A DNA stretch of 64,000 nt from Fidelibacterota bacterium. GTDB taxonomy: Bacteria; Fidelibacterota; JAANXI01. The notes beneath the pieces are model-generated. The model had not been told where the DNA came from and did not search any database. It saw only the letters and a list, made by a program, of their open reading frames with translations. The translations under genes were made by a program, and so were the position numbers. Shown here in pieces: positions 19,544 through 56,657 of the stretch (positions are counted from its first letter, which is position 1; every line of letters starts with the position of its first letter). Location: positions 6,165-70,164 of the forward strand of contig JAIPJS010000017.1 in assembly GCA_021734025.1 (NCBI GenBank), written 5' to 3'.

Positions 19544-20206
19544 GTGGCAGGATCAAAAAAAATAGGACGACGCAAGCAACCGGACGAACGGAAAAAGGAA
19601 ATTATCGATGCGGCAAGAGATCTGTTCGCATCCCAGGGATACGACAACACTACCATGCAGCAGGTCGTGGAGAAGGCGGGCACGTCCATCGGGAATTGCT
19701 ACTTTTACTTTTCCAATAAAAAGGAATTGTACCAGGGAGTCGTAGAGTCCGTTAACGAAGAGATCTCCGGAGTTGTCGACACTGCAATTCGAGAAATGAA
19801 TTCACCGTATGAGAAACTCGCTGCTGCCGTGTACTACGGGGCGAGGACCGTGCTGGAACTTTCGGAATCGGCCGGTGCCATCCTTACTGGAACGGATCAC
19901 CCGGAGATTCGCCGAAATATTCTGAACCATTACACCCGTCGAATCTATCGGTTCCTCAAACGGAATCCTGTTATCACCGGAGACATAAATCTGGAGTTGG
20001 CCTCAGCCGCATGGCAGGGTGCGATATTCAACTTGATTGAACGACAGACGGCCGGGCAGTTCGACGGCGATGCGCAAACGGTCGCCCGATTCCTGGTGCG
20101 GTGGAACCTCCGCGCCCTCAACGCCCCGGATGCCGAAATCAACAGCGCGCTGGAGACGGTTGAGAGGCATTACCGGGAGGAATACGGGAGCGGGGATGAG
20201 GTATAG
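19544..20206 (+). CDS. TetR/AcrR family transcriptional regulator
   Basis: N-terminal TetR HTH (..KEIIDAARDLFASQGYDNTTMQQVVEKAGTSIGNCYFYFSNKKELY..); GTG start. Confidence 0.9.
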   Translation: MAGSKKIGRRKQPDERKKEIIDAARDLFASQGYDNTTMQQVVEKAGTSIGNCYFYFSNKKELYQGVVESVNEEISGVVDTAIREMNSPYEKLAAAVYYGARTVLELSESAGAILTGTDHPEIRRNILNHYTRRIYRFLKRNPVITGDINLELASAAWQGAIFNLIERQTAGQFDGDAQTVARFLVRWNLRALNAPDAEINSALETVERHYREEYGSGDEV

Positions 20207-20244
20207 GGTATAGGGAAAAAGGGAGAAAGGAAAAAGGAGAAGGG
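20206..20244 (+). repeat. G-tract module (GGGTATAGGGTATAGGG..) immediately after stop codon; four GGG tracts
   Basis: GGG at 20206, 20213, 20221, 20242; begins within the TetR stop codon; start of a purine-rich spacer. Confidence 0.6.
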
Positions 20245-20482
20245 AGAACGAAAAAAGGAAAAAAGCCGCGAAGGGGCGACAGATGAATAGCCCCGGGTTT
20301 TAACCCGGGGATTGTGTGAATCCCAAAATTCAAAACACTGAAGATGTGAAAGAAATACCTTATTGAAGAATGAAGAATGAAAATTAAAGAAGTGGAAAAA
20401 CTAAAGGAAACTGGAATTATGAGACAGGAAACCGAAAACCAGCAATCCAGAACTGGGGACACAGCATGCTTGACCGTTTTAA

Positions 20483-20550
20483 CGATAACACCATAACACA
20501 ATTACACAGTTTTAACTTAAACACTTGAACACCTGAACACACTAACACTG
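20483..20550 (+). repeat. tandem octamer NNRAACAC module upstream of start codon
   Basis: GATAACAC CATAACAC .. TTAAACAC TTGAACAC CTGAACAC ACTAACAC, ending 17 nt before the ATG at 20568. Confidence 0.6.
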
Positions 20551-20567
20551 TACAAAGGAGAATACAC

Positions 20568-21008
20568 ATGCAAGAACTCTACACCGAAATAGAGATCAAC
20601 GCCACCCCGGAGGAGGTTTGGGACATCCTGATGGATTTTTCGAACTATCCGGAATGGAATCCGTTTGTCACCAGCATCAACGGGGAGCAGGCCGTTGGCG
20701 GGAAGCTGACGGTAGAACTAACTCAGCCGGATAGCAAGCCGATGACCATGAAGCCGACTGTCAGGAATATTGAGCAAAACAGAGAGTTCCGCTGGCTGGG
20801 ACATCTCGGCATCCCGCGGATCTTCGACGGGGAGCACATCTTTGAACTCGAGCAACTCGATGAAAACAGGGTACGCTTTGTCCAGCGGGAAAAATTTAGG
20901 GGAATTCTTGTCCCGTTCCTGAAGAAGATGCTTGAGACGAGAACGAACGAAGGGTTTCAACTGATGAATCAAGCGCTGAAAAAACGAGCGGAAGCTGGGA
21001 CTGCCTGA
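20568..21008 (+). CDS. SRPBCC (START/Bet v1-like, polyketide cyclase-like) domain protein
   Basis: 146 aa; N-terminal ..ATPEEVWDILMDFSNYPEWNPFV.. typical of SRPBCC ligand-binding fold. Confidence 0.75.
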   Translation: MQELYTEIEINATPEEVWDILMDFSNYPEWNPFVTSINGEQAVGGKLTVELTQPDSKPMTMKPTVRNIEQNREFRWLGHLGIPRIFDGEHIFELEQLDENRVRFVQREKFRGILVPFLKKMLETRTNEGFQLMNQALKKRAEAGTA

Positions 21009-21635
21009 ATGACATAAGCCGGTGGGAATCTTGAAACGTGCAAAATAAAAAGCGTCGACTTGAATTTTTTTCCACTTTTAACGTCAAGGTTTTGATGTCC
21101 AAGTGTTCCATGCAGGCCCGGACATGCGTTTCAAGATAAAAGTGGAATTAATTGATATAGTTCCAAAACTCCAACATCACTCTTGTTTTTAAAACTATTG
21201 CTATCTTTTAATTGCCCGCTTTTTCTTGATAAAAAACGGGCAGAAAAAATCAAGGAAACTCAGAACTCGCACTCCTATAAATATACAGGCTCTTTTGCAA
21301 CATTGGATATAGTAAATATTAACTCATTCAATTTCTACTGGGGTGCTCAAACAGCTGAGTTTCCGGTAAAAAAACTAGCAATAATTTGCTGTGCAATTTA
21401 TTTTTCGCTCTTTTAATGCCCGAGTATTCCATATACGCATCAAGACAAAAGGGCGGTTACCTGCCGTGTCAACGTTGAAAACACAATCAATACGTTGTTC
21501 ACCCTACATCCAGAAGAAATCTTCGTCTGTAAAGATGGTGGCTATCTATTTGGGCGAATTTTAATAATCCCGACGTCACCCCCTCGGAAAGCTCAGCTCC
21601 GGGAAAAGCCTCCGGTGAGGATATTGCCTAAAACA

Positions 21636-21674
21636 GTCATTCCGAGCGGAACGGAGTGGAGCCGAGGAATCTCG
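21636..21674 (+). repeat. mosaic intergenic repeat R1 (GTCATTCCGAGCG..GGAATCTCG), copy A
   Basis: Near-identical to 34989-35027; related copy at 31264-31312. Confidence 0.6.
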
Positions 21675-21759
21675 CAAATGAATTTCAGGGGTAAAATTGA
21701 TGCGCCCTTTCCTCATCGCAATAATATGTTCGTCGCGGCGAATTGCGAGGCTCTTCTTT

Positions 21760-21788
21760 GGTAGCCTTTGAATTTCATTCAAAGGCGG
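21760..21788 (+). repeat. palindromic repeat R5 (GGTAGCCTTTGAATTTCATTCAAAGGCGGA)
   Basis: Perfect hairpin CCTTTGAAT-TTC-ATTCAAAGG; second copy with 2 mismatches at 39517-39546. Confidence 0.55.
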
Positions 21789-21999
21789 ATTTTACCGGAT
21801 AAAGCCGGAAAATTTGGTTGGCGACTGTGAATTAGAATGACCCTTTCAGGGTCTCGACCCCTGAAAGGGTCGGTAGCAAATAAGGAAACTCAATGCCATT
21901 CAGTCTTTGCGGCCCAGGTGATCCGTTTGTTAAGAGGGAGAACTCGAGAAATCTAGTCTGAACACATCGGGAATGAAGTGAAAAACTAAAAAACAAGAA

Positions 22000-22221: not shown

Positions 22222-22237
22222 GTCTACCATTAACTTT

Positions 22238-28847: not shown

Positions 28848-28889
28848 TTTTAATCACAAATCATGAAGATATTGGTAAAAAGGAAAGTG

Positions 28890-31229
28890 ATGATGAAACG
28901 TATTTCGATAATATTTGCAGCCGTTCTGGGGATAACAGTTACTGGTGTACAGCATACGCATGCCCAGCAGACCGGCGTCATTCAGGGCACTGTGGTGGAT
29001 GCCAAAACCCAGGAGCCGCTCATCGGTGTAAACGTGGTCGTGGTGGATACCGACCTCGGGGCATCTACCGATATGGAAGGCTTTTACCGCATAACGGGCG
29101 TGCCGATCGGTACCGAGCGGCTCCGTTTTTCTTATATCGGATATGAAACACTTCTCCGGACGGACGTCATCGTCACCCGCAACAAACCGGCGCAGGAGAA
29201 CGCCGAACTCCAGCCGCAGGCAGTAGAGGGAGAAGAGGTCGTTGTGACCGCAGGTTATTTTGAGGAATTGCGAAAAGCCCAGACCAGCAAGATCCAACTC
29301 TCCAAGGAAGAGATTCGACGGTTTCCCGGTGGCTTCGAGGATGTGGTGCGAACGGTGGCAGCCCTGCCGGGAGTAGCCATAAATAACGATGGTGGCAGAA
29401 ACGACTTGCTGGTGAGGGGCGGCGGCCCGTCGGAAAATTTATACCTGATCAATAATATAGAAATCCCCAACATTAATCATTTTGGCTCCCAGGGGACGGG
29501 AAGCGGCTCCCTGAGTTTTATCAACCTGGATTTTGTGGATAAAGTGGACTTCTCCACCGGCGGATTCAGCGCGCAATACGGAGACAAGATGAGCTCTGTG
29601 CTGGCGCTGGATATGGCCGACGGACGGGAAGACCGGTTCGGGAGTAAGGTTTTAGTTTCCGCTACACAGTACGGGCTAAATGCCGAAGGTCCGCTGGGTA
29701 ACGATGGCAATTTCATCTACTCCATCCGTCGGAGCTACCTGGATCTCATTTTCGAGGCCAACGGACTGCCGTTCGTTCCGACATATACCGACTGGAATTT
29801 CGTCGCCAATTACGATGTGACACCTACGGATAAACTCTTTGTGTTGGGTATCGGCGCCTACGACGAAGTCAACCGGGATCAGAGCACCCTGGAGAGCCGG
29901 GTGTTCAACGCAGGTATTATGGACAATTCGCAGAACCGCTGGATCGGCGGACTGAACTACCGCCATCTGCTGGGCAGCGGGTATCTGGATTTCACCTTGA
30001 GTAACAATTATACGGATTTCCAGTTCAGCCAGGTGGATTCAGTCCAGACGGAATATTTTCGCAGCGAAGCTACCGAAGTGGAGACGAACCTGAAGTTGCA
30101 ACATTACTGGCGGCTGAGTAACAGTGTGAACCTGCTGAGCGGCGCATCGGTCAAGGATGTCCGGAATGAGAACACCACTACTTTCGCAGATACCATATAC
30201 AACCGGAACGGCGATCAGGTGCCGGTGAATTCGCTGGGCATACCGCAGCGGCTGGAGGAGAATTCCGACGCATTCAAGAACGCGCTCTTCTCGGAGATTC
30301 AATGGAAAATCACACCAAAATTGGAAGTTTCAACAGGCATCCGGGCGGATATTTACACCTTCCTGGATCAGCCATGGTACGTGGCGCCGCGATTCAAGAT
30401 GCGGTACGCGTTTAATGAGGTATTCAGCCTGAAATCCAGCGCCGGGATTTACTATCAGGCGCCCTCGTACGTCTGGGTGATCAACGATGTGAATACCCAG
30501 CTGAAGGCGCTGCGGAATAACATGGCGGTGGTCGGATTCGACTATCTGCTCGATGAGGATCTGCGGCTTTCGGTAGAATCCTATTACAAGGATTACCAGG
30601 ATCTACCCACCGGCGCCACACCCGGCACCGATTATCTGGTGATTACAAACACCGGCACCGGGTTCGGCGGACGGGAGAACGATTTCCAGTCCTTCGGCTA
30701 TTTTCCCATGGAATCAACAGCGTACGGCCACGCCTACGGATTCGAATTGTTTCTGCAGAAAAAATACTCCGAGGTGCCACATTACGGGAAGGCTAGTCTG
30801 ACTTACAGCAAGAGTGAATTCACTGCCGGCAACGGCAGGGTGCAGCCCGGCGAATTCGACCAGCGCTGGATCTTCAACCTGTACGGCGGATACAAGTTTA
30901 ACGCGGATTGGGAAATGAGCGGCAAATTCCGGTTCTTCACCGGCGCACCGTATACGCCGGTATATCGGCCATCGGAGAACGGCGGGGAGATTCAGAATCT
31001 GCCGGAAGAATACCTGTCGAAGCGACTCGAACCGGGACATCATCTGGACGTTCGGCTGAATCGGTACTGGAATTTTGAGAGCTGGACATTCATCGCATTC
31101 ATCGATATTCAGAACATCTACAACAATCGGATCCAGGTACGGCCGCGCTACGACTTCTGGGAGGACGAAGTCGTTGACCGGCAGGGCATCGGGATTTTGC
31201 CGTCGATTGGACTCAGCGCGGAGTTGTAG
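28890..31229 (+). CDS. TonB-dependent receptor-like outer-membrane protein with N-terminal carboxypeptidase-regulatory-like domain
   Basis: Signal peptide; CarbopepD_reg-like segment (GTVVDAKTQEPLIGVNVVVVDTDLGASTDMEGFYRI), plug-like region, long beta-barrel region; start chosen at internal ATG after AGGA RBS. Confidence 0.7.
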   Translation: MMKRISIIFAAVLGITVTGVQHTHAQQTGVIQGTVVDAKTQEPLIGVNVVVVDTDLGASTDMEGFYRITGVPIGTERLRFSYIGYETLLRTDVIVTRNKPAQENAELQPQAVEGEEVVVTAGYFEELRKAQTSKIQLSKEEIRRFPGGFEDVVRTVAALPGVAINNDGGRNDLLVRGGGPSENLYLINNIEIPNINHFGSQGTGSGSLSFINLDFVDKVDFSTGGFSAQYGDKMSSVLALDMADGREDRFGSKVLVSATQYGLNAEGPLGNDGNFIYSIRRSYLDLIFEANGLPFVPTYTDWNFVANYDVTPTDKLFVLGIGAYDEVNRDQSTLESRVFNAGIMDNSQNRWIGGLNYRHLLGSGYLDFTLSNNYTDFQFSQVDSVQTEYFRSEATEVETNLKLQHYWRLSNSVNLLSGASVKDVRNENTTTFADTIYNRNGDQVPVNSLGIPQRLEENSDAFKNALFSEIQWKITPKLEVSTGIRADIYTFLDQPWYVAPRFKMRYAFNEVFSLKSSAGIYYQAPSYVWVINDVNTQLKALRNNMAVVGFDYLLDEDLRLSVESYYKDYQDLPTGATPGTDYLVITNTGTGFGGRENDFQSFGYFPMESTAYGHAYGFELFLQKKYSEVPHYGKASLTYSKSEFTAGNGRVQPGEFDQRWIFNLYGGYKFNADWEMSGKFRFFTGAPYTPVYRPSENGGEIQNLPEEYLSKRLEPGHHLDVRLNRYWNFESWTFIAFIDIQNIYNNRIQVRPRYDFWEDEVVDRQGIGILPSIGLSAEL

Positions 31230-31263
31230 GATAGGGAATGGGGCAATTATGTAGTTCAGCTGA

Positions 31264-31312: not shown

Positions 31313-31342
31313 TCAATTACACTGGGTGGTTTAAATTTCCGG

Positions 31343-31405
31343 CAAAGTAACACTTACCTCAAAGAGATCCCTGTGGGACAGAGGGCAAGACCTGGAAGGG
31401 TCGAT
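31343..31405 (+). repeat. repeat R3 copy 1 (..GTAACACTTACCTCAAAGAGATCCCTGTGGGACAG..)
   Basis: About 60-nt element repeated at 31567-31630 and in reverse orientation around 35128-35190. Confidence 0.6.
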
Positions 31406-31434
31406 AAAATTGGGAGATGAAAAACCAGGTTCAA

Positions 31435-31500
31435 CCTGTCATTTCGACCGAAGTGAACCTTTGGTTTTTAAAAGGTGAACGAAGCGGAAAAATCTCGTGA
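31435..31500 (+). repeat. repeat R2 (66 nt), copy 1
   Basis: CCTGTCATTTCGACCGAAGTGAACCTTTGGTTTTTAAAAGGTGAACGAAGCGGAAAAATCTCGTGA; second copy at 34651-34716 with 3 mismatches. Confidence 0.75.
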
Positions 31501-31566
31501 AAATCCAATAGGAATGGAAAAATAATTCAAATATTCCGGGATGACTTGCACTTTTTTTCTTGAGTG

Positions 31567-31630
31567 CAAAGTAACACTTACCTCAAAGAGACCCCTGTGG
31601 GACAGGGGTTAAGACCCTGGAAGGATCGGT
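31567..31630 (+). repeat. repeat R3 copy 2, ending 20 nt before the 31650 start
   Basis: Contains perfect hairpin ACCCCTGTGGGACAGGGGT. Confidence 0.6.
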
Positions 31631-32808: not shown

Positions 32809-32966
32809 GCCATTTAACCCCGCCATAGATGGCGGGGCTAGTCAATTTTGTCGCTATTCATTCATATGAATAGCCCCGGGCTTTCCCAAAGGGATCTCCA
32901 TGAGGCAGCCCGGGGATAAAGATAAACTACAAATGATTGGCCCATTAAGGCTATTGTCGCAACGAA

Positions 32967-34627: not shown

Positions 34628-34650
34628 CTGCTTCCACTCATCTAATATTA

Positions 34651-34716
34651 CCTGTCATTTCGACCGAAGTGAGCCTTTGGTTTTTAAAAGGTGAACGAAG
34701 CGGAGAAATCTCGTGA
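34651..34716 (+). repeat. repeat R2, copy 2
   Basis: 66-nt near-identical copy of 31435-31500. Confidence 0.75.
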
Positions 34717-34988
34717 GTTAGACCGGAGATTCCGCTTCAACAGAACAACCCTTCATTTCCGGCTACACGATTTGTTGTCCCTTCCACACTCGGGGACTCT
34801 AATGATGGTGAATGGAGTCTCAAGAATGTGAGACGGAAAATAATTCAAATAGCCCGGAGTGCAGTGATATTGGCGGAATCCCTGGCGGTGAAAATGCCGA
34901 TTAAATTACGAGTTTCCTTAATCCTTGGCTTCCTCCGATAAAACGGTTTTCGCCAGAAATTAGAAAATATTAAAAGCAAAAAGTATAA

Positions 34989-35100
34989 GTCATTCCGAGC
35001 GAAACGAAGTGGAGTCGAGGAATCTCGTAAAGCCAACCTCTTGAGAGACAACCACGAGATCCTTCGACTCCCCCGACAAGTCGGGGTCGCTCAGGATGAC
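34989..35100 (+). repeat. 112-bp imperfect palindrome (R1 full element)
   Basis: 5' arm GTCATTCCGAGCGAAACGAAGTGGAGTCGAGGAATCTCG pairs with 3' arm CGAGATCCTTCGACTCC..TCGCTCAGGATGAC; internal hairpin CCCCGACAAGTCGGGG. Confidence 0.65.
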
Positions 35101-35202
35101 TGGTATTGTTTTCGACTGTATTCTTATGATCCTTTCAGGGCCTCGAGCACTGTCCCACAGGGATCTCTTTGAGGAAAGGGTCTGATAATACACGAGGAGA
35201 AT

Positions 35203-37526: not shown

Positions 37527-37684
37527 TTAGTTGGAGAAGTTCTTAATCGTAATCCTACTCTTAATCTTACTCCGTTTGTTTGTAGTTAGTTGTTGGTAAA
37601 ACTCCGCTTGTGTATCTGTTTTCACCTTTCTATGTGGATAAAAACTTTCTCGAGTTGTTTTTGGACGTCACAGAAAATTGATTG

Positions 37685-37758
37685 GGAGTAAGATTAGGAT
37701 TAAGAGTAACCAGCACTGTTGTTAACTTGAACACCCGAACACATTAACACTTGAAAAC
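37685..37758 (+). repeat. hexamer (TAAGAT/TAGGAT) module followed by octamer NNRAACAC module, + orientation
   Basis: GTAAGATTAGGATTAAGAG then TTGAACAC CCGAACAC ATTAACAC, about 80 bp upstream of the 37836 start; mirror-image copy 37545-37575 on the other side of the divergent region. Confidence 0.55.
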
Positions 37759-39233: not shown

Positions 39234-39235
39234 TA

Positions 39236-39312
39236 GGGTACAAGGGTATAGAGGTATAGGGGGCAGTTGGGTTTCTTAATCCTAATCTTAATCCTAATCC
39301 TAATCTTACTCA
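39236..39312 (+). repeat. G-tract module (GGGTACAAGGGTATAGAGGTATAGGGGG..GGG) followed by hexamer (AATCCT/AATCTT)n module
   Basis: Starts 3 nt after the YfcC stop; four G tracts at 39236, 39244, 39259, 39269; then CTTAATCCTAATCTTAATCCTAATCCTAATCTTACTC. Confidence 0.6.
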
Positions 39313-39726
39313 TACTCCAAATCAAATTTATCTAATTATGAAATGCAGAAGGGATAAAGCGTTTCGTGGTGCGTTTACTGTTGGATATCCCGGTGCATGG
39401 GAGCGGACGAAAACTCGGATAGCCGGAGAGGAAGCGTCGCGTCCCGACAGAGACTCCTCCCGGAGGCATCCCCGGCGAAGTTTATCACCGCGCAATAAGA
39501 CTATGATGTTAATAATGGTAGCCTTTGAATCTCATTCAATGGCGGAGAACTATCATCAACATCTGCAAAAATTTGCTATTTCAGTTCAATATTCGGCATC
39601 TGTTGTAAGCAATTCACCGGCAACGACGCTTAACGCGATCGTCGCCGGAAGGATCCGTTTCACACTTCGATATTCGAAATTGGGCATTGGATATTCGATA
39701 TTCATTCTTTCCCGTCCAACCACACC

Positions 39727-44879: not shown

Positions 44880-45030
44880 CGGCGGGTACAAGGTAATGAA
44901 AACATGTTTTTCAATTAGAAAATGTAAATCACCGAGATTGAAAAACATGATTAAGATTATGAGTAGGATATAGAATAAGAAACGCGAGACATTAATACGA
45001 TAACACATTAACACGAGCGAACTGGTTTTT

Positions 45031-47084: not shown

Positions 47085-48794
47085 ATGGATATCCGGGACA
47101 AACGAATACTCGTACTGGGGGGCTGGGGGCTAGTTGGCAGAGCCATTAGCAAGCGGATTTTGGCGCGGGGACCGGAGCAACTGATAGTGACCTCTCTGCG
47201 GAAACGGGAAACTGAAGAGGTGGTTGAAGCGTTGGAGCCCCGGGCAATGAAATACGGGGCAGAAATCGTCGGAGAATGGGGAGACATCTTCGTCAGAGAT
47301 TCCATGAAAGATGTTGGCCGGGGGGAAATGTATACGGATCAGGAGTTGCGCACCACACTCATCGCGGATATCTACGATGACCTGAGCGAGGATGTGCTGA
47401 CATCCTCAGTCCTTTATCAATTGGTGGAAAAATATCAACCGCACATTATTATTGATTGTATTAATACCGCAACGGCATTTGCGTATCAAAATCTTTTTGA
47501 ACGGGTCGCTCAGATTCGGAACTCCCTGAAATCCACCGGGAGGAGTATTGAAGACGAAGAGCATATTCTTGAGAACGTGGAACAGCTTATTGCATCCCAG
47601 TATATCCCGCAGCTGATTCGTCATATTCAGATTCTCCACGCGGCCATGTGGGAGTTCGACACCGACAGCTATTTGAAAATCGGTACCAGCGGGACCGGCG
47701 GTATGGGACTGAACGTGCCGTTTACCCACAGCGAGGAAAAGCCGTCGAAACTCTTGTTGAGCAAGTCGTCGGTAGCCGGAGCGCATACCATGTTGCTGTT
47801 TCTTATGGCGCGGACGCCGGGCGGTCCGGTGGTGAAGGAGATTAAACCGTCGGCGGCCATCGCCTGGAAGGAGATCGGTTACGGGAAGATTCGGCGGCAC
47901 GGGTCCTATATTCCCATGTACGACTGCAAAGTGGAGGATGCCAAGCGGATGGATGACTATCTGGAGAGGCATCCGGATAAGTACTGGGAGGAAATGGAGG
48001 ACAAAGTTGTAGAGTCAGTCTATATCGATGCCGGGGAAAACGGATATTTTTCCGCCGGCGAATTTTCGGTTATTACCTCTGAAGGGCTCATGGAATTTGT
48101 GACGCCGGAGGAGATCGCGGATAAAACGCTGATGGAAATTGAAGGTGGGAATACCGGCAAAGATGTGGTGGCGGCGCTGGATTCTGCCGTGCTTGATCCG
48201 TCGTATCGCGCCGGTGTCCTGCGGGAAAAGGCCGTGAATAAAATGCAACACCTGGAGGAGGAACACGAAACCCACTCTATCGCCTTCGAACTGTTAGGCC
48301 CTCCGAAAATCACGAAACTCCTGTACGAAATTTACCTGCTGAAGCGGATTACCGGTGACATCAAAAAGATTCCGGATTACGATGCGGAATCGCTCTCCGA
48401 ATCCATGGTCGGGATTATTGACTCTGACGATCATCTCCGTCAGCTTATTTTGTCAGTCGGTACCGGAATCCTGATGCCCAGTGGTAAAGATTTTCTGCGC
48501 GGACCGGATCTCAGTTTTCCGCGATTTGAGGGTGTTAACCTCTACGAGTCGACGCCGGAGAAGGTTGATTTCTGGGCGGACAATGGCTGGCTGGATCTGC
48601 GAGTAAAGAACATGGAGGCCTGGCGGGACAGGATCACCGCCATACTGGAGGAAATGGGGGAGGACAGCGAAGAAGACTACTCATCTGAGTTCTATCATCG
48701 ACACAAATACGAGTTCGACTTCGGCTCCAGTGAGCTGGGCGCTATTGTAAGCTGGATTCTGGATAAGGAAGAGGATGGCGCGCGGATAAAGTAG
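47085..48794 (+). CDS. hypothetical protein with N-terminal Rossmann-like dinucleotide-binding motif (569 aa)
   Basis: N-terminus KRILVLGGWGLVGRAI resembles a GxGxxG NAD(P)-binding loop; remainder unrecognised. Confidence 0.6.
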   Translation: MDIRDKRILVLGGWGLVGRAISKRILARGPEQLIVTSLRKRETEEVVEALEPRAMKYGAEIVGEWGDIFVRDSMKDVGRGEMYTDQELRTTLIADIYDDLSEDVLTSSVLYQLVEKYQPHIIIDCINTATAFAYQNLFERVAQIRNSLKSTGRSIEDEEHILENVEQLIASQYIPQLIRHIQILHAAMWEFDTDSYLKIGTSGTGGMGLNVPFTHSEEKPSKLLLSKSSVAGAHTMLLFLMARTPGGPVVKEIKPSAAIAWKEIGYGKIRRHGSYIPMYDCKVEDAKRMDDYLERHPDKYWEEMEDKVVESVYIDAGENGYFSAGEFSVITSEGLMEFVTPEEIADKTLMEIEGGNTGKDVVAALDSAVLDPSYRAGVLREKAVNKMQHLEEEHETHSIAFELLGPPKITKLLYEIYLLKRITGDIKKIPDYDAESLSESMVGIIDSDDHLRQLILSVGTGILMPSGKDFLRGPDLSFPRFEGVNLYESTPEKVDFWADNGWLDLRVKNMEAWRDRITAILEEMGEDSEEDYSSEFYHRHKYEFDFGSSELGAIVSWILDKEEDGARIK

Positions 48795-48797
48795 AAA

Positions 48798-48817
48798 GGG
48801 GTATAAGGGTATAAGGG
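48798..48817 (+). repeat. G-tract module GGGGTATAAGGGTATAAGGG after stop codon
   Basis: Starts 4 nt after the stop at 48794. Confidence 0.55.
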
Positions 48818-49060
48818 ATTAGTATTACGTACTGCGTATTAGTGTCCAGGTGTTCCACACAAGCGCGTATGAAACCGGAAAAGGGGACAGATTGAATATC
48901 CAACCGACGATTATCCAATGCTCTGCTGCGGCGGAACGGCGAACCAATCCCGAGGACCCCACCCGGTTCTGACCCCTTCTAAAGAATTCAATATCATGAA
49001 TGATGAGTGAAAAAGTGAAGAACGCGGAGAGCGGAAACTGAAGAATCTCGAGCATCTAAA

Positions 49061-49106
49061 CAATAACACGGGAATACCCGAACACTATAACACTATTTTC
49101 AACACT
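49061..49106 (+). repeat. octamer NNRAACAC module upstream of cmk
   Basis: AATAACAC .. CCGAACAC TATAACAC .. TTCAACAC, about 50 bp upstream of the 49157 start. Confidence 0.5.
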
Positions 49107-49156
49107 TGAAATTCGGTTTGCAATCGCAAGGGGAAACTTCTAAATTCCAAAGCTAA

Positions 49157-49852
49157 ATGAGAACAAAACTAACTATAGCAATTGATGGTCCGTCAGGATC
49201 AGGGAAAAGTACCACTGCCCGGCGCAGTGCCGAACGGCTGGATTATACCTATGTCGACACCGGCGCCATGTACCGGGCCATTACGCTACACATTCTCAAC
49301 AACAACGTCCCGATTAAGGATAAATCGCAGGTAGTGAAAGCGGCGGCTGAGGTGCAGATTCAGTTCACCCGGACCGGTGACCGGCTTGAAGTGTTGCTGG
49401 ACGGGAAGAACGTCACCGATGCTATTCGCGAGCCACGGATTGATAAGTCGGTGGGACTTGTAAGTGAGAACCCCGGGGTGCGTGCCATACTGGTGAATTT
49501 ACAGCGATCGCTCGCAAAGGATGGCGGGGTGGTCATGGAAGGACGTGATATCGGTACCCGGGTACTCCCCGATGCCGATCTCAAGTTTTTCATGGATGCC
49601 GACCTCGACATCAGGGCGGAACGCCGGAAATCTCAGTTGGCCGATCAGGGGGTAGATGTAGACAAAGAAACCGTTAAACAAGAACTGGTCAATCGGGATA
49701 CTCGCGATTCCGAGCGCGATGAATCGCCGCTTCGTGCCGCGGAGCACGCTATTCTGATTGATACAACAAACCTTTCCATTGAAGACCAGGTGGACTTAAT
49801 CGTCCAGCGAGCGAGGGAGAAGGAAGCACAGGAGGTTACTCTTCATGAGTGA
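49157..49852 (+). CDS. cmk: cytidylate kinase
   Basis: P-loop IAIDGPSGSGKST and CMP-kinase specific regions. Confidence 0.9.
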   Translation: MRTKLTIAIDGPSGSGKSTTARRSAERLDYTYVDTGAMYRAITLHILNNNVPIKDKSQVVKAAAEVQIQFTRTGDRLEVLLDGKNVTDAIREPRIDKSVGLVSENPGVRAILVNLQRSLAKDGGVVMEGRDIGTRVLPDADLKFFMDADLDIRAERRKSQLADQGVDVDKETVKQELVNRDTRDSERDESPLRAAEHAILIDTTNLSIEDQVDLIVQRAREKEAQEVTLHE

Positions 49853-52088
49853 AGAAGAAAAACAGCAACAAACCCAAGATGAGGAAACACAAGTCGAAGA
49901 AGTAGAAGAAACACAGGAGAAGGCACCTGAAAGTGATGAACAGACGGAGGCAGCAGAAGAACAGGAAACCGCTGCTCCGGAATCCGATGGCAACGGACAA
50001 ACCACTGACTTTGGCATCCTCGATCTTGACGACATTCAGACCATTCCGAAAGACGAGTTAGTCGAAAAGCGTGAAGAGACCGACGAAGAGGAAGAGCAAC
50101 TTCGCTCGCTGCTGTCAGACACGTTAAAGGATATCGGCGAAAACCAGATCACTGAAGGCCGCGTGCTCTCCATTAATGAGCGCGAAGTCGTGGTGGATAT
50201 CGGGTTTAAGGCAGAAGGGCTGATCCCCATTGAAGAATTTGAAGGTGACGATCTGCCAGAGCCGGGAGAAGAAGTCGACGTCTATATCGATTTTCTGGAA
50301 GACGAAGACGGCCAGCTGATTCTCTCCAAGCGCAAAGCTGACTTTATGAAGCAGTGGGAGAAGGTCGCCAATGCCGAAGCCAACGACGAGGAAGTCGAGG
50401 GAACTATTGTCCGCCGCGTGAAGGGTGGTATGATGGTGGACGTCAGCGGCGTCAACTGCTTCCTGCCGGGGTCACAGATCGATGTCCGGCCGATTCAGGA
50501 TTTCGACGCCTACGTTGGGCAGACCTTCAATTTCAAGATCGTCAAAATCAACGAAATGCGGAAAAACGTGGTGCTCTCCCGGAAGGTCATTCTGGAAGAG
50601 AATCTCAAAGAGCGCCGGAAAGAACTCCTCAAGGATATCGAGGTCGGTCAGGTGCTCCAGGGCCGCGTCAAAAATATCACCGACTTCGGCGTGTTCGTTG
50701 ATCTCGGTGGCATAGACGGCTTGATCCATATTACGGATCTCTCCTGGGGCCGTGTGAATCATCCGTCGGAGGTGGCCAATCTGGAAGAAGTTATCGACGT
50801 GATGGTCATCGATTATGACGAAGAGAAACAGCGTGTTTCTCTCGGACTCAAGCAATTGCAGCCGCATCCCTGGGATAGCGTGGAGGAGAAATACCCCGTG
50901 GGTTCCGTTGTCACCGGCAAGGTGGTCAGCATCACCAATTACGGCGCCTTTGTCGAGCTGGAGAAGGGCATCGAAGGGTTGGTGCACATCTCGGAGATTT
51001 CATGGGTGAAACACATCAAGCATCCTTCGGAAGTCTTTTCACTCGGTGAGGAAATCGATGTAAAAGTGCTGGATATCCAGCCGGAAGAGCAGAAAATTTC
51101 TCTGGGCGTCAAACAGTTGGAACCGGATCCCTGGGAAGAGATCGAAAAGAAATTCGAACCGGGATCCATCGTTACCGGTATCGTCCGGAACCTCACCCAG
51201 TTTGGTGCATTTGTTGAACTGGAAGAGGGTATTGATGGGCTGATTCATGTGTCCGACATGTCCTGGACCCGGAAGATCCGGCATCCCAAGGAAATTCTCT
51301 CCAAGAGTGATGAAGTCCAGGTCAAGGTCCTGGATGTCTCCAAGGACGAGCGGAAAATTTCCCTTGGCCTGAAACAGGTGGAAGAGGATCCGTGGCCCAA
51401 GATCAAGGAGAAGTTCAAGATCGGTACAACAACCCAGGGCAAGGTGGAGCGTATCCTGAACAAGGGGATTATCGTGAATCTGGAACTGGATGTGGAAGGT
51501 ATTGTCCCGTTGTCTCATATTCCGAAAAAGGATCGGAAGCAGATGACGCAGAACATCCAGGTCGGTGACGAAATGGAACTGAAGGTTATCGACATCAATG
51601 AGGATGATAAAAAAATCGTACTCTCCCGGGATGAATTCATCCAGGACAAGGACCAGCACGAGGTCGATATGTTTATGAAGACTCAGGGCGGCCAGGCGGC
51701 TGAAAAGATCGAAATTCCGGAAGAAGTCCGGAAAACGATTGAAGAAGGCGAAAGCCAGGCTGAAGAAGAGCCCGAGAGTACCGAAGCCGAGGAAGAAGTG
51801 ACCGAGAAGGCCACTGCCAACGAAGTCGACGAAGGGACAGACGAAGAGGAGGACGCAGCTCAACCAGAATCTGCAGAGGATGACGAAGAAGCAGTGAAGG
51901 CAGAAGAAGCCGAAGAGGCCGACGAAGAGGAAGCGACAGAGGCAAAATCGGAGGCCGACGAAGCAAACGACAAATCGGAGGAGAAAGAAGAAGACGACGT
52001 GGAGGAGGAACCAGAGGACGACGGGGATGCCGAGGATGACGTTGATGAAGATGAGGATGAAGATGAGGATGAGGAGTCGGAGAAATAA
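49845..52088 (+). CDS. rpsA: 30S ribosomal protein S1 with acidic N- and C-terminal extensions
   Basis: Six S1-type OB-fold repeats; Glu/Asp-rich N-terminal segment (about 60 aa) and C-terminal tail (about 100 aa); start overlaps cmk end. Confidence 0.9.
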   Translation: MSEEEKQQQTQDEETQVEEVEETQEKAPESDEQTEAAEEQETAAPESDGNGQTTDFGILDLDDIQTIPKDELVEKREETDEEEEQLRSLLSDTLKDIGENQITEGRVLSINEREVVVDIGFKAEGLIPIEEFEGDDLPEPGEEVDVYIDFLEDEDGQLILSKRKADFMKQWEKVANAEANDEEVEGTIVRRVKGGMMVDVSGVNCFLPGSQIDVRPIQDFDAYVGQTFNFKIVKINEMRKNVVLSRKVILEENLKERRKELLKDIEVGQVLQGRVKNITDFGVFVDLGGIDGLIHITDLSWGRVNHPSEVANLEEVIDVMVIDYDEEKQRVSLGLKQLQPHPWDSVEEKYPVGSVVTGKVVSITNYGAFVELEKGIEGLVHISEISWVKHIKHPSEVFSLGEEIDVKVLDIQPEEQKISLGVKQLEPDPWEEIEKKFEPGSIVTGIVRNLTQFGAFVELEEGIDGLIHVSDMSWTRKIRHPKEILSKSDEVQVKVLDVSKDERKISLGLKQVEEDPWPKIKEKFKIGTTTQGKVERILNKGIIVNLELDVEGIVPLSHIPKKDRKQMTQNIQVGDEMELKVIDINEDDKKIVLSRDEFIQDKDQHEVDMFMKTQGGQAAEKIEIPEEVRKTIEEGESQAEEEPESTEAEEEVTEKATANEVDEGTDEEEDAAQPESAEDDEEAVKAEEAEEADEEEATEAKSEADEANDKSEEKEEDDVEEEPEDDGDAEDDVDEDEDEDEDEESEK

Positions 52089-53537: not shown

Positions 53538-53541
53538 GAGC

Positions 53542-54576
53542 ATGTCTGACAAGACAGTCGGAACAGTGCTGGGGATAGAAACCTCTTGCGATGAGACTTC
53601 CGTTGGAATTGTTCGTGATGGAAAGGTGTTAAGTAACATTATTGCCTCTCAGCAGGTGCATTCCGAATACGGCGGAGTGGTCCCGGAAATGGCATCCCGG
53701 GAGCATGAGCGATTGTTGGCCCATATTACCAGAGAAGCTTGTGACGACGCGCATCTCCGGTTTACTGACATCGATGGAATAGCTGTCACTGCCGGCCCGG
53801 GTCTTATGGGGTCACTGCTCGTTGGGATTAATTTTGCCAAGGGACTCGTTCTGCGGAACTCGCTTCCATTCATTGGAATAAACCATATCGAAGCCCACCT
53901 GCTGGCCAATTTTATTGAAGCTGAAACTCTGGAATACCCGTTTCTTTGTCTGCTGGTTTCCGGCGGGCACTCGCAGATTATACGCGTGAACGGATACGAC
54001 AAATACGACATTCTGGGGACTACCATGGATGATGCGGCCGGCGAAGCGTTCGATAAGGTGGCGCGGCTGTTAGATTTGGGATATCCGGGAGGACCGTATA
54101 TCCAAAAACAGAGCGAGGGCGGGCAATCCGATAAATACGATTTCCCCAGGGGGTTGCTGGATTCCGGTGATTTGAATTTTTCCTTTTCCGGACTGAAGAC
54201 GGCGGTATTGTACACGGTGAAACCCATGGAGGTGAAAAAGCGGACAGCCGAGCGCCCTCACATCAGCGCCAGCTTTCAGGCGGCAGTAGTGGAGTCTCTG
54301 GTGGCCAAGATGGAAATGGCCATCGAACAGACCGGCATCACCCAGGTGACACTTGCCGGTGGGGTGGCAGCGAATGCGGAGCTGCGGCGTCAAATGGATG
54401 AACTCCGCGACCGACACGGGCTGAATTTGTACTATCCATCTCTGGAATACTGTACCGATAACGGCGCCATGATTGCCTATGCCGGTTGGGAGGGGTTTCG
54501 TCACGACAAATCTTCCGAACTGGATCTCACCGCTACCCCGCGGGTCAGTATATCGTCACCAGTTTTTACCTCCTGA
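53542..54576 (+). CDS. tsaD: tRNA N6-adenosine threonylcarbamoyltransferase
   Basis: Kae1/TsaD signatures (..LGIETSCDETSVGIV.., ..INHIEAHLL.., ..GGVAAN..); AGGAG RBS. Confidence 0.9.
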   Translation: MSDKTVGTVLGIETSCDETSVGIVRDGKVLSNIIASQQVHSEYGGVVPEMASREHERLLAHITREACDDAHLRFTDIDGIAVTAGPGLMGSLLVGINFAKGLVLRNSLPFIGINHIEAHLLANFIEAETLEYPFLCLLVSGGHSQIIRVNGYDKYDILGTTMDDAAGEAFDKVARLLDLGYPGGPYIQKQSEGGQSDKYDFPRGLLDSGDLNFSFSGLKTAVLYTVKPMEVKKRTAERPHISASFQAAVVESLVAKMEMAIEQTGITQVTLAGGVAANAELRRQMDELRDRHGLNLYYPSLEYCTDNGAMIAYAGWEGFRHDKSSELDLTATPRVSISSPVFTS

Positions 54577-56612
54577 TGTTTTCACTGCATACTGTTACTC
54601 TATGGATTACTGTTCCTCTCATTTTGGGAGGACTGTTGTTCTGGTGGTGGTCAACCCGTTACCTATCGAGTGTTACAAATCCCACTGTTGCCGGAATAAT
54701 CCGGGGGATTCGTCTGTTTGCATTGATTGGGATTATACTGTTAGTTGCGGATTTTCGAATTAATTGGGTCACGCATCAAAATATTCCACCAACAATTGCC
54801 GTCTTCGCCGACGATTCGCAAAGTTTGACAGATTTTGAAGGACAGCTCTCCGATTCATTGGAAAAAATTCTGTCTGAAGATGCCGTAGAGGTCCAACTAT
54901 TCCGTTTTTCGGGAGATGTTCAGAAGACGGGTTCACCCAAGGCTTTGGATTTTTCCGGAACCGAAACCAATTTAAGTGCTCCGTTAGAATACCTGAAACG
55001 AGAAGCCGACAACCGGAATTACCAGGCGGCGATTTTACTCAGCGACGGTATCCATAACAGCGGACCAGAACCAACATCAGTTCTGGAGGATTGGCGGCTT
55101 CCGGTGTATACGATGTTTATCGGAGATTCGACGGTTGCGCCGGATATCAGCCTCCAACAATTTACGCTTCCCAAATACGCATATGCCGGGGATTCCGTTA
55201 CCGCCCAATTGAGGCTGGATGTTCAGTCACTCCGAAACGAAGAATCTGTCTCTCTCGTTCTCAGAGACAACAACCAGGAGTTGGCGAGCAGAACCCTGTC
55301 ACTGACGCCAGGGGATTACCAGCGGTCTGATGAGGTGGCACTGCAGTTCGAAGAGCCTGGTGAATATACTGTCTCAGCGGCTGTTGGTACGGTTTCAAAC
55401 GAGACGGATGTGGCCAATAATAGTTCCCGGGAACGCATTACAGTGAAGCCGTCCCGGTACCGGGTGCTGGTGTTAAGCGCAGCGCCGTCAACGGATACGC
55501 GCTTTCTGCTCAACGCTATCGATAATCTTGAGCGGTTCGAGTCCATTCCGATCTTTACATCACTCTCGGTTCCTGATTCGATGCCGGAAGCCCCCGATAT
55601 TATTTATTTGTTGGGCAATTCGCCGGAGTTTCAGTCGTATCTGAGCGAGTGGCAAAACGACCACACGATTACACAGGTTGGTGCGGGCGGGAGAATGTAT
55701 CTTCCCGGCGATTCCGGAGAAGAGAATGTGAACAACTGGCAGGAGCACCAGGTCACGCTCCAGCGATCCTCGGAAAGTCCTCTGCAGTCCCTTCCCTGGG
55801 GACAATCGATATGGGAGCAACTGCCTCCGGTCTGGATCCCGGCGGCATCAGAAATCGGGAAAATACGCGGGACCACGATTTTAAAATCTGTCGATGGGAA
55901 TAATTCTGTAATAACCATGGATGTGGATGGCACCGGACGAACTATTCGTGTCTATGCAAGAGAACTCTGGCGGTGGTCGTTTGCGAACCGGGATGCTGAA
56001 GAAAGTATCGAAGTACTCCCTGAGAAGCCGTATTCCAGGGTGATGGAACAGGTTTTTTACTGGTTGCTGCAGGATACGGAGTTTCAGCGATTGCAGGTAG
56101 AGTTGGACACCGATTCAAGAAACGTGATCCGGGCGACGGCTCAAGTATATTCCCGGGCACTGGAGGTTGCGGAAGTCGCGAGGGTATGGGGTGAAGTGAT
56201 CGATTCGACAGGACAAACCATCCGGCGGCAGCCGTTTACCCGGGATGGAAATACTTTTACTTTTCAGTCGAAGGTGACTTCGCCGGGGGAGTATCGGCTC
56301 AGGGCTATTGCTCATCTGACAGACGATACGCTGCGTTCCGTAGCCGGACCGGTTCGGATGGAGGATGTAGAGTATGAGTTATTGAATCGCCAGGGGCGCC
56401 CCGGTTTGCTGAAACAGATTAGTCAGCGATCTGGCGGCAAGCTCTTGGAAAATATTGCGGAGTTACCGGCGGAGGAGTTCGCGGGCCGCCCGTACACACA
56501 GCAATCAGAGCACCATTCCTTTGCATTGCGCAGGGCGTTTTGGGTGTGGATTTTACTCGTCATTCTGCTGGGCATAGACTGGTGGATCCGCCGGCGGAGC
56601 GGGATTCTGTGA
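54576..56612 (+). CDS. hypothetical membrane protein with N-terminal double TM segment and C-terminal TM anchor (about 678 aa)
   Basis: ATG overlaps tsaD stop (TGATG); two N-terminal hydrophobic helices, large soluble middle, C-terminal helix then RRRSGIL; supplied ORF extends further upstream in the same frame. Confidence 0.55.
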   Translation: MFSLHTVTLWITVPLILGGLLFWWWSTRYLSSVTNPTVAGIIRGIRLFALIGIILLVADFRINWVTHQNIPPTIAVFADDSQSLTDFEGQLSDSLEKILSEDAVEVQLFRFSGDVQKTGSPKALDFSGTETNLSAPLEYLKREADNRNYQAAILLSDGIHNSGPEPTSVLEDWRLPVYTMFIGDSTVAPDISLQQFTLPKYAYAGDSVTAQLRLDVQSLRNEESVSLVLRDNNQELASRTLSLTPGDYQRSDEVALQFEEPGEYTVSAAVGTVSNETDVANNSSRERITVKPSRYRVLVLSAAPSTDTRFLLNAIDNLERFESIPIFTSLSVPDSMPEAPDIIYLLGNSPEFQSYLSEWQNDHTITQVGAGGRMYLPGDSGEENVNNWQEHQVTLQRSSESPLQSLPWGQSIWEQLPPVWIPAASEIGKIRGTTILKSVDGNNSVITMDVDGTGRTIRVYARELWRWSFANRDAEESIEVLPEKPYSRVMEQVFYWLLQDTEFQRLQVELDTDSRNVIRATAQVYSRALEVAEVARVWGEVIDSTGQTIRRQPFTRDGNTFTFQSKVTSPGEYRLRAIAHLTDDTLRSVAGPVRMEDVEYELLNRQGRPGLLKQISQRSGGKLLENIAELPAEEFAGRPYTQQSEHHSFALRRAFWVWILLVILLGIDWWIRRRSGIL

Positions 56613-56617
56613 AAAAA

Positions 56618-56657
56618 GGGTATAAAGGTATACGGGTATAGGGTATAAGTAATAGGG
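56618..56657 (+). repeat. G-tract module (GGGTATAAAGGTATACGGGTATAGGGTATAAGTAATAGGG) after stop codon
   Basis: Four GGG tracts at 56618, 56634, 56641, 56655, starting 6 nt after the stop. Confidence 0.6.

Follow-up and report, generated by a model that had tools for sequence, protein, structure and literature searches.

Tandem GGGTATA arrays at gene 3' ends in a Candidatus Marinimicrobia genome: probable components of rapidly evolving intergenic spacers

Four clusters of GG(G)TATA(A/G) words, all on the + strand, start between −6 and +7 nt relative to the stop codons of four unrelated genes in the 64-kb stretch of Candidatus Marinimicrobia DNA analysed here (the window). We conclude that these modules are probably short, fast-changing tandem arrays of a 7–8 nt word, one of a small vocabulary from which rapidly evolving, lineage-specific spacers are built. 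Most likely, they represent slippage-driven, largely dispensable spacer DNA; no evidence was seen for a role as G-quadruplex or as terminator.

Results

An earlier note had reported GGGTATA runs directly after four + strand stops, and all four are present (features are given on the + strand throughout). Module 1 (20200–20219) consists of 2.3 copies of GGTATAG, with the sequence GGTATAGGGTATAGGG, and was found both by pattern search and by TRF. It overlaps the end of a tetR gene (TetR_N) such that the TAG stop codon (20204–20206) lies inside the first unit; the tetR ORF is ~7 aa longer than its orthologues, and the array itself would here supply the stop codon. Module 2 (39234–39263; TAGGGTACAAGGGTATAGAGGTATAGGGGG), three units by pattern search, adjoins the TGA (39231–39233) of a gene for a DcuC-family transporter, previously described as yfcC-like. 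Module 3 (48797–48820) comprises 2.4 copies of GGGTATAA (TRF; sequence AGGGGTATAAGGGTATAAGGGATT) and lies 2 nt past the TAG of a gene for a 569-aa protein, for which PF27054 is on record and which NCBI names a short-chain dehydrogenase. Module 4 (56616–56666; AAGGGTATAAAGGTATACGGGTATAGGGTATAAGTAATAGGGAATAAGGTA), with 4.4–6.9 units of (A)AGGGTAT(A) by TRF, is located 3 nt past the TGA of a gene whose 708-aa product has no Pfam match. The TRF calls at 20200, 48799 and 56616 had a period of 7–8 nt and 2.3–4.4 copies (6.9 counting degenerate units). The modules are thus head-to-tail tandem copies of a 5–11 nt unit, as is characteristic of intergenic simple-sequence repeats.

Three weaker copies were also seen: a single word, GGTATAAGG, at 16564–16572, 15 nt past the stop of the gene at 15541–16548; degenerate G-tract words, GATAGGGAATGGGGCAAT, at 31230–31247, directly past the stop of the gene at 28863–31229; and degenerate words, GGGTACAAGGTAATG, at 44884–44898, 4 nt past the stop of an HNH gene, an intergenic region that carries better arrays in the relatives L169 and L294. 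The genome sequence examined amounted to 84 kb, with nearly all genes on one strand; the window holds these four clear and three degenerate sites, and the extra 20 kb holds none.

With a cluster defined as at least two GGTA[TC]A matches within 18 nt, four were observed, all on the + strand. In 300 dinucleotide shuffles the mean number was 0.13 and the maximum 3. Under uniform placement in the window's 9.4 kb of intergenic sequence, with both orientations allowed, the stop-adjacent position would have a probability of ~0.017 per cluster and of ~9e-8 for all four. A two-unit pattern with up to two mismatches was likewise found 11 times vs 2.55 expected. A coincidence of G-rich and TA-rich sequence after four stops could draw on the single heptamer GGGTATA, which is only ~2-fold enriched (10 matches vs 4.8 expected); such a coincidence is refuted by the cluster statistics and by the recurrence of the words at orthologous stops in relatives (see below). 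Modules are commoner than base composition predicts, as simple repeats are, and their non-randomness lies in word recurrence and position.

By TRF in the window and its flanks, three GGGTATA arrays lie ≤ 6 nt from a stop (≤ 7 nt for all four clusters), and six AACAC-type arrays lie 17–135 nt from a start. In Marinimicrobia loci, the GGTATA words found ≤ 60 nt after an ORF of ≥ 170 codons were all in sense orientation (12/12), the remaining matches appearing to lie within coding sequence. The sense, stop-adjacent polarity was seen also in unrelated metagenome contigs, where arrays after ORF ends numbered 23 in sense and seven in antisense orientation (P = 0.005).

Comparison with relatives revealed that the arrays change quickly. 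At the stop of the 569-aa gene, L166 and L294–L301 (87% identity) carry one unit (TAGAAACGGTATAAGGG), the window 2.4 units, and L169 (85% identity) at least nine units, its contig ending in the array; no array was found there in L167, L168 or L170. In L173, TRF placed the start of a (GGGAGAC)4 array 71 nt past the same stop, so that relatives at 69–75% identity have either no array or another word. The segment between the HNH gene and scpA measures 200 nt and includes GGGTATACGGTATAAGGG in L294 vs 67 nt without it in L296, although the 569-aa protein is identical in these two contigs.

The spacers that begin with the modules differ as well. Module 2 forms the left edge of ~480 nt absent from L169, and the L170 region orthologous to module 4 is only 106 nt long and array-free. 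Intergenic lengths in the window vs relatives were 547 vs 70 (L169), 437 vs 106 (L170), 362 vs 175 and 172, and 361 vs 131 and 156 nt. Intergenic DNA has expanded in a lineage-specific way, to 361–547 nt in the window vs 70–175 nt in the closest relatives compared, and the arrays are the edge of these expansions on the stop side. Variable copy number among close relatives whose spacers are shorter and repeat-free is what simple repeats display. Promoter-like sequence downstream of the spacers is conserved, and in the closest orthologous regions that have no array, the stop and the conserved TTGACT promoter-like hexamer are just 15–18 nt apart. At two stops, GGTATA words persist from lineage to lineage even though the remaining intergenic sequence has diverged beyond alignment, a persistence that could reflect selection.

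From the G tracts, the earlier note had read G-quadruplex (G4) potential into three of the four modules. Its tract counts are accurate (four GGG tracts within 35–40 nt at three sites, three at 48798), but G4 potential as the defining property of the modules was not borne out. A regular-expression scan for (G3N1–7)4 gave zero matches on both strands of the window, and the L169 array fails the motif as do all four modules. The three four-tract sites each contain at least one loop of 11–18 nt (longest loops 18, 12 and 13/11 nt) and module 3 has three nearby G tracts only; hence, no site fits the canonical motif. ViennaRNA minimum-energy folds were identical at all four sites with the G4 option on or off, and none contained a G4. 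G4Hunter scores reached 1.56 and 1.40 at two modules and stayed < 1.4 at the other two, whereas at least six higher peaks fall within coding regions; moreover, many array units carry GG only. No hairpin followed by a T-run was predicted on the + strand from any of the four stops up to the gene that follows, and the module RNAs fold no better than shuffled sequences (z-scores −1.1 to +0.4). The modules are no demonstrable G4-type 3' end signals.

The same observations bear on the broader idea of the earlier note, that the module functions as an RNA element where the 3' UTR begins. A G-quadruplex or another G-rich platform could stall 3'-to-5' exonucleases, pause RNA polymerase or bind a protein, and so define or stabilize the mRNA 3' end. 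That the placement in four genes is non-random, on the sense strand and tied to gene 3' ends was upheld; the function read from it was not, given the absence of predicted terminators, the folding scores and the gain, loss and resizing of arrays among close relatives. We consider an RNA element of this kind unlikely. Sense placement at stops of genes without an intrinsic terminator would suit it, as would the sense bias in metagenomes, and four perfect units give the canonical G3N4 motif, which 20/85 metagenomic arrays contain; yet neither the window sites nor the L169 array fit that motif, their G4-aware folds contain no G4, many units are GG-only, and stronger G4Hunter peaks sit inside genes. 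A stabilizing role has a parallel in the proposal made for cyanobacterial STRR (PMC2670836), but here one unit vs at least nine occur at the same stop, contigs encoding the identical 569-aa protein differ in presence, and a clear module follows only four of the 27 gene ends that have ≥ 60 nt of intergenic DNA downstream.

Rho suppresses antisense transcription, and we also considered the opposite strand, on which the word reads (TATACCC)n: C-rich, G-free, unstructured and resembling a Rho-loading site. Transcription that is antisense or convergent could be halted there ahead of the gene. The first 40 sense nucleotides of the modules contain 0–2 C (none in the first 40 nt after the stop at module 1), leaving a G-poor, C-rich complement, and the modules are predicted to be unstructured. 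Such an antisense action is nonetheless highly improbable: at 16–50 nt the arrays fall short of the usual length of rut regions, an antisense promoter is not evident, and copy number is unstable.

The spacers are built of several tandem words, all intergenic: GG(G)TATA(A/G), (T/G)AACAC(NN), TAATC(C/T), and purine words including GGAAAAA and TGAAGAA. Module 1 is continued by a purine-only tandem array of GGAAAAA and GGGAGAAA words (20214–20265; TRF period 7, 14 or 21), and its spacer carries 8-nt (T/G)AACAC arrays at the start-proximal end (20485–20549). Module 2 adjoins 7.8 copies of a TAATCC/TAATCT hexamer (39274–39323; TRF), which are 92% complementary to 37680–37709. Other dispersed repeats occur in the window. 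AACAC arrays also lie upstream of the DcuC-family gene (37725–37760) and at the promoter-proximal ends of the module 3 spacer (49060–49096; conserved in L166/L294) and of the module 4 spacer (56889–56923), the last with a promoter-like site, TTGACT-17-TACTAT, downstream of it (56961–56989).

Alternatively, each long spacer might have been inserted as a mobile or selfish element of a MITE-, REP- or BIME-like type, one end of which is the GGGTATA array. The spacers are indeed lineage-specific insertions, each sitting precisely in the gap from a stop to the promoter that follows; three of them have the same end words in common, those at 48794 and 56612 contain an identical 16-mer, and dispersed repeats are found elsewhere in the window. 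However, a search of the spacers at 20150–20600, 48750–49170 and 56580–57060 gave no terminal inverted repeats, and inspection by eye of filled-vs-empty junctions revealed no target-site duplication. The three spacers align only at their low-complexity ends; the 60% column identity is mostly low-complexity sequence, the interiors do not align, and no conserved full-length copies emerge. Unit numbers, furthermore, change in place between relatives. An inserted element is thus very unlikely.

The opposite positions of the two word classes point to another possibility, that they are recognition sites of a lineage-specific DNA- or RNA-binding protein, GGGTATA marking the ends of transcription units and AACAC their starts, as punctuation or insulation. 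A 23-nt AACAC motif occurs in four copies vs 0 expected and persists before the same genes in relatives, and a binding protein was proposed for the TAACTGA repeats by MacGregor 2015 (PMC4679880). Set against this, the majority of transcription-unit boundaries in the window have neither word, close relatives differ in whether the words are present and in how many copies, and no candidate protein was found. A single role for the AACAC arrays, moreover, is hard to reconcile with their location, which is just before a Shine–Dalgarno sequence in some cases and upstream of a promoter-like site in others. Recognition by such a protein appears quite doubtful.

Discussion

We favour the interpretation of the modules as fast-changing tandem arrays within spacer DNA. 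By analogy, they appear to belong to one class with cyanobacterial STRR, TAACTGA heptamer repeats and long simple sequence repeats (LSSR). The repeat class itself was already known; new here are the phylum, the word and the sense-strand, stop-adjacent polarity. LSSR have units of 5–11 nt and a sporadic phylogenetic distribution, and heptamers, ascribed to slippage, are their commonest class (Mrazek et al. 2007, as far as summarised in PMC4679880). The modules agree in unit size, and in these respects resemble LSSR, but they are short (2–4 units) and individually might miss the LSSR length threshold.

A close parallel in detail is provided by the TAACTGA repeats, which occur in marine Beggiatoaceae, in Cyanobacteria and in some Bacteroidetes (PMC4679880). 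Those, too, form short sets of one heptamer (2–6 copies, sometimes long arrays), with other heptamers mixed in, no predicted RNA structure and an unknown function; the sets lie at many intergenic sites, and the window shows four clear and three degenerate ones. Heptamer assemblages occupy intergenic regions that are shorter and repeat-free in relatives, contigs end in arrays, and indels come in 7-nt steps (PMC4679880). The differences are the word (here GGGTATA), the phylum (here Marinimicrobia) and the location: most TAACTGA sets lie just upstream of starts, whereas the window modules lie just downstream of stops, the start-proximal place being held by the AACAC arrays. STRR are likewise tandem 7-bp units, a limited set per genome, non-coding and of unknown function, with a suspected role in raising transcript stability (PMC2670836). 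They belong to filamentous, heterocyst-forming cyanobacteria and often form hairpins; the modules are predicted to be unstructured and come from a Candidatus Marinimicrobia MAG, not a cyanobacterium, so that STRR in the strict sense were rejected. REP/BIME sequences resemble the modules in being intergenic repeats concentrated near the 3' ends of genes, but REP elements are imperfect palindromes forming hairpins, whereas the modules are direct tandem repeats without a palindrome. With G4 motifs of mRNA 3' regions the modules have sense-strand G3 tracts in common, and at least four perfect units would give G3N4G3N4G3N4G3; however, no copy in the window has the motif or the predicted fold, and tract number is not conserved.

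Under the interpretation that we favour, the arrays would grow and shrink by replication slippage and are probably dispensable. They may touch the stop codon because the narrow gap between stop and promoter is the only place that tolerates extra DNA. In sense orientation the word places a TAG or TAA in each frame at intervals of 7–8 codons, which bars any ORF from running on into the array; read in reverse, all three frames are open. The same forward-closed, reverse-open argument was made for the TAACTGA repeats (PMC4679880). Once transcribed, the arrays would give the 3' untranslated region a beginning that is unstructured and nearly devoid of C.

A purely neutral model, however, gives no reason for the reuse of the same word at many sites, nor for GGGTATA being always stop-proximal and AACAC always start-proximal. 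The words that persist at two stops across diverged lineages and the metagenomic sense bias also speak against strict neutrality, and the four genes lack a predicted intrinsic terminator, so that some role at 3' ends is possible. A word-binding protein, or orientation-dependent instability of repeats in transcribed DNA, could possibly account for the G-rich word at the stop end and AACAC at the promoter end. In the boldest version, which we hold to be improbable, the two words punctuate sense-strand transcription units, GG(G)TATA after the last stop and (T/G)AACAC before the next promoter or start, and are read by a dedicated nucleic acid-binding factor to end, insulate or stabilize transcripts in place of hairpin terminators. 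If true, this would apply to the present Marinimicrobia lineage and perhaps to other members of the FCB group, as similar GGTATA arrays directly follow genes elsewhere, too; one of 14 units stands after menB in a Cytophagales bacterium.

Short GGGTATA repeats directly follow four stop codons

As the earlier note had described, four stop codons on the + strand are directly followed by a 7-8 nt word, GG(G)TATA(A/G), repeated two to four times in tandem. Module 1 (20200-20219; GGTATAGGGTATAGGG) begins within the tetR gene, such that the tetR TAG (20204-20206) is part of the first unit. Module 2 (39234-39263; TAGGGTACAAGGGTATAGAGGTATAGGGGG) directly follows the TGA of the DcuC-family gene, module 3 (48797-48820; AGGGGTATAAGGGTATAAGGGATT) starts 2 nt past the TAG of the 569-aa gene, and module 4 (56616-56666; AAGGGTATAAAGGTATACGGGTATAGGGTATAAGTAATAGGGAATAAGGTA) 3 nt past the TGA of the 708-aa gene. 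Tandem Repeats Finder (TRF) assigned periods of 7-8 to the modules, and their first units start −6, +4, +6 and +7 nt from where the stop codon ends. A weaker copy with a single word follows each of three further stops (at 16564, 31230 and 44884).

This stop-adjacent pattern is real and non-random. Four times in the window, two or more GGTA[TC]A cluster within 18 nt, always on the + strand, compared with a mean of 0.13 (maximum 3) in 300 dinucleotide-preserving shuffles. With clusters free to fall in either orientation at any point of the 9.4 kb intergenic DNA, the observed position has a probability of ∼0.017 for a single cluster and of 9e-8 for the four together. Of the four unrelated genes 5′ of the modules, the first encodes a TetR regulator and the second a DcuC-family transporter; the third encodes a 569-aa protein with PF27054, which NCBI names short-chain dehydrogenase, and the fourth a 708-aa protein without a Pfam match. 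The claim that such placement is not due to chance was upheld. No population variation was seen: the Logan copy of the window region is identical to that of NCBI.

The modules lack G-quadruplex, terminator and RNA structure signatures

The earlier note had also ascribed G-quadruplex potential to three of the four modules. Its G-tract counts were correct, with four tracts at three sites and three nearby tracts at 48798, but the inferred potential was not borne out. At each of the three four-tract sites, one or more loops measure 11-18 nt, and a regular expression search for (G3N1-7)4 returned no match on either strand of the entire window. ViennaRNA minimum-energy folds were the same with and without G-quadruplex energies at all four sites. 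G4Hunter scored two modules at 1.56 and 1.40 and the other two below 1.4; coding regions contain at least six peaks that score higher. We therefore rejected a G-quadruplex identity on the basis of the regex search, G4Hunter and quadruplex-aware folding.

An intrinsic terminator or structured RNA was likewise rejected. Consensus scans found no hairpin plus T-run after any of the four genes, and the 87-101 nt 3′ of each stop folded no better than shuffled sequences (z of −1.1 to +0.4). Rfam gave no match at gathering scores, and no tRNA or tmRNA was found. Pairing of the GGGTATA array with a TAATCC array (39231-39330) had a predicted energy of −23.1 kcal/mol but was not significant (z = −1.1). 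With only 0-2 C residues in their first 40 nt, the modules as RNA would be predicted to be unstructured and almost C-free.

The modules open long, lineage-specific spacers

All four modules reside in unusually long intergenic regions. The DcuC to HD gene region spans 547 nt in the window and 70 nt in L169, one of the related loci compared here; the 708-aa gene to ugd region, 437 nt and 106 nt (L170); the 569-aa gene to cmk region, 362 nt and 175 or 172 nt (L294 and L170 respectively); and the tetR to cyclase gene region, 361 nt and 131 or 156 nt (L302 and L303 respectively). The exception to the short versions in relatives is L173, whose 569-aa gene to cmk region measures 581 nt. In the short orthologous versions, the stop and a conserved TTGACT promoter-like hexamer are only 15-18 nt apart. 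The extra DNA of the window sits exactly in this gap, and the GGGTATA array comes first. It is followed by a mosaic of further tandem words, i.e. GGAAAAA/GGGAGAAA, TGAAGAA, TAATCC and TTCGATA, with 8-nt (T/G)AACAC arrays at the far end. Because the spacer interiors did not align to each other and no terminal inverted repeats were found in three of the spacers, they are not copies of a mobile element, and a MITE- or REP-like origin was rejected.

Two of the long spacers share an identical 16-mer, ACAGATTGAATATCCA (48887-48902 and 56732-56747); in two others (20280-20312 and 32863-32895), a hairpin comes after a related motif, (C)AGATGAATAGCCCCGGG. TAATCC-type arrays lie in inverted orientation on either side of the DcuC-family gene (37680-37709 and 39274-39312), being 92% complementary over 24-26 nt; if one transcript contained both, its 5′ and 3′ ends could be brought together by pairing.

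Repeat number varies at orthologous stops

Orthologous loci from relatives were collected via the 569-aa and TetR proteins. Downstream of the 569-aa gene, where the window has 2.4 units, the Red Sea loci L166 and L294-L301 (87% protein identity) carry one unit (TAG AAAC GGTATAAGGG), and L169 (85%) at least nine, its contig ending within the array. No GGTATA word is present at this stop in L167, L168 and L170 (70-75%), while L173 (74%) has (GGGAGAC)4 from 71 nt past the stop. In the HNH-scpA intergenic region, clear GGGTATA words occur 33-39 nt past the stop in L169 and L294, and the window has a degenerate GGGTACAAGGTAATG. L294 and L296 encode an identical 569-aa protein, yet this region is 200 nt long in L294 versus 67 nt, without words, in L296. 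After tetR, we counted 2.3 units in the window, one in L302 and none in L303. Since unit number and presence vary in this way, the arrays appear, disappear and change in length over short evolutionary times. The window TetR (ORF 19544-20206) is ∼7 residues longer at its C-terminus than orthologues of 66-67% identity and terminates at the TAG of the first GGTATAG unit; hence, the array seems to have taken the place of the ancestral tetR stop.

Collectively, these are tandem arrays of a recurrent word, hypervariable in copy number, at the stop edge of lineage-specific spacers. Such resizing among relatives, along with the lack of a G-quadruplex, hairpin or terminator signature, speaks against the functional 3′ end element that had been proposed. 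The arrays are better described as bacterial intergenic heptamer/octamer simple repeats.

The HNH-scpA region also contains a 16-bp hairpin (44900-44952; 94% complementary, 21-nt loop); by eye, a similar hairpin occupies the same place in L294 (about 1490-1540), the 87% relative.

AACAC arrays lie at the opposite end of intergenic regions

The 8-nt (T/G)AACAC tandem arrays are found at 20485-20549, 37725-37760, 44989-45014, 49060-49096 and 56889-56923, and outside the window at 5014-5040 of L053, its flank, and at about 790-850 of L303. A 23-nt AACAC core, GAACACCTGAACACTATAACACT, has four copies versus none expected. According to TRF on the window and its flanks, six AACAC-type arrays precede the next start by 17-135 nt, always on the sense strand, and three GGGTATA arrays lie within 6 nt past the upstream stop (all four clusters, within 7 nt). 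AACAC arrays are kept before the same genes in relatives; in L303, approximately ten units immediately precede the Shine-Dalgarno sequence of the Polyketide_cyc2 gene. This polarity refers to 84 kb of genome, in which nearly all genes are on one strand that is also the G-rich strand, so that gene-relative and replication-relative polarity are inseparable here.

GGTATA arrays in metagenomes

A metagenome pattern scan for three GGTATA units was evaluated for the matches listed (at least 120). We removed telomere-like contigs (GGGTATA beside GGGTTTA arrays), arrays spanning > 120 nt and arrays near contig ends, which left 85 arrays among the matches listed, on contigs of 33-62% GC. Where an open frame of 100 codons or more ended within 40 nt upstream, the G-rich strand was sense in 23 arrays and opposite in seven of these matches (binomial P = 0.005). 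Seven of nine upstream ORFs tested among the matches listed were recognizable bacterial genes, and one upstream ORF is menB of a Cytophagales bacterium, with an array of 14 units. Canonical G-quadruplex motifs were limited to 20 of the 85 listed arrays. The GGGTATA word in reverse is open in all three frames, and 19 of the 85 are contained in open frames of 150 or more codons that run along the C-rich strand; the 23 versus seven bias may therefore be partly an artefact of antisense arrays being absorbed into real or spurious ORFs. GC skew in the array flanks merely tracks gene orientation, which again makes replication strand and gene strand inseparable. In viral contigs, the matches listed were near chance level or unrelated tandem repeats.

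Several metagenome matches consist of (GGTATA)n ... (TATACC)n, an inverted pair that could fold into a long hairpin. Such pairs follow genes on contigs L180, L185, L203, L204, L222, L224, L249 and L293; because some are then followed by A/T-rich sequence, they resemble terminator-type stems built from simple repeats. Other contigs (L178, L181, L196, L200, L283 and others, from Ga0075108, Ga0075109 and Ga0208768) carry long GGGTATA arrays interleaved with GGGTTTA and lack long ORFs. GGGTTTA is the plant/algal telomere-type repeat, and these contigs are probably eukaryotic telomeric or subtelomeric sequence.

Relation to known heptamer repeats and possible origin

Heptamers are the commonest class of long simple sequence repeats, and slippage is their proposed cause (PMC4679880); cyanobacterial STRR are built of 7-bp units whose function is unknown but which may contribute to transcript stability (PMC2670836). 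The closest known phenomenon is the TAACTGA intergenic heptamer repeats of Beggiatoaceae, Cyanobacteria and Bacteroidetes. These come in sets of 2-6 copies, and different heptamers are assembled in one intergenic region, where close relatives have shorter versions free of repeats. Contigs end in the repeats, indels occur in steps of 7 nt, RNA structure is not predicted, and the forward orientation is closed by stops while the reverse is open (PMC4679880). The GGGTATA arrays have the same signatures. They differ from the TAACTGA repeats in word and phylum (Marinimicrobia) and in position: TAACTGA sets are mostly just upstream of starts, a place taken in the window by the AACAC arrays, whereas GGGTATA is just downstream of stops. 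A full-text literature search for the exact repeat strings found nothing. New here are the GGGTATA word and Marinimicrobia within a known heptamer/octamer repeat class; the stop-adjacent sense-strand polarity and the pairing with promoter-proximal AACAC arrays are a modestly interesting detail.

We infer that replication slippage creates the arrays and alters them. They would abut the stop because the few bases between stop and next promoter may be the sole place that tolerates extra DNA. In sense orientation, an ORF would be unable to extend into the array, since every frame of the repeated word meets a TAG or TAA once in 7-8 codons; in modules 2-4, stops in all three frames occur within 26-44 nt. 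Slippage leaves unexplained the reuse of GGGTATA and the G-rich stop-proximal versus C/A-rich promoter-proximal placement. A putative word-binding protein is one candidate for both word reuse and polarity. Others are repeat instability that depends on which strand is non-template in a transcribed region, and a role of the antisense strand as a putative C-rich Rho loading site.

What maintains bacterial heptamer repeats has been a question since STRR were first described. The polarity, if real genome-wide, would offer a clean case for deciding whether slippage limited by coding potential, instability that depends on orientation in transcribed DNA, or a binding protein is responsible. In addition, arrays break metagenome assemblies, as in L169, and can shift annotated stop codons, as in the window tetR, which bears on both the quality of MAGs and gene calling in Marinimicrobia and Bacteroidota.

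Other features of the window

Outside the GGGTATA units, two hairpins followed by a T-run lie at 20264-20310 on the − strand. This was the only Rfam match in E-value mode (Acido-Lenti-1), at a sub-threshold 28.2 bits (gathering score 37), and the hairpin pair may represent either a small RNA or a terminator on the minus strand. Its T/C-rich tail is complementary to, and on the opposite strand of, the purine tract that follows tetR.

Dispersed intergenic repeats of 31-67 nt (91-97% identity), unrelated to the GGGTATA word, occur at 31434-31500 and 34650-34716; at 31342-31392, 31566-31616 and 35124-35181 (inverted); at 21635-21678 and 34988-35031; and at 21759-21789 and 39516-39546, which suggests other small repeat families in this genome. 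Finally, the 3′ end of an S1-domain gene (49845-52088) contains in-frame tandem repeats of 9-27 nt rich in GAA/GAG/GAC (51884-52075), which encode an acidic, low-complexity C-terminal tail.
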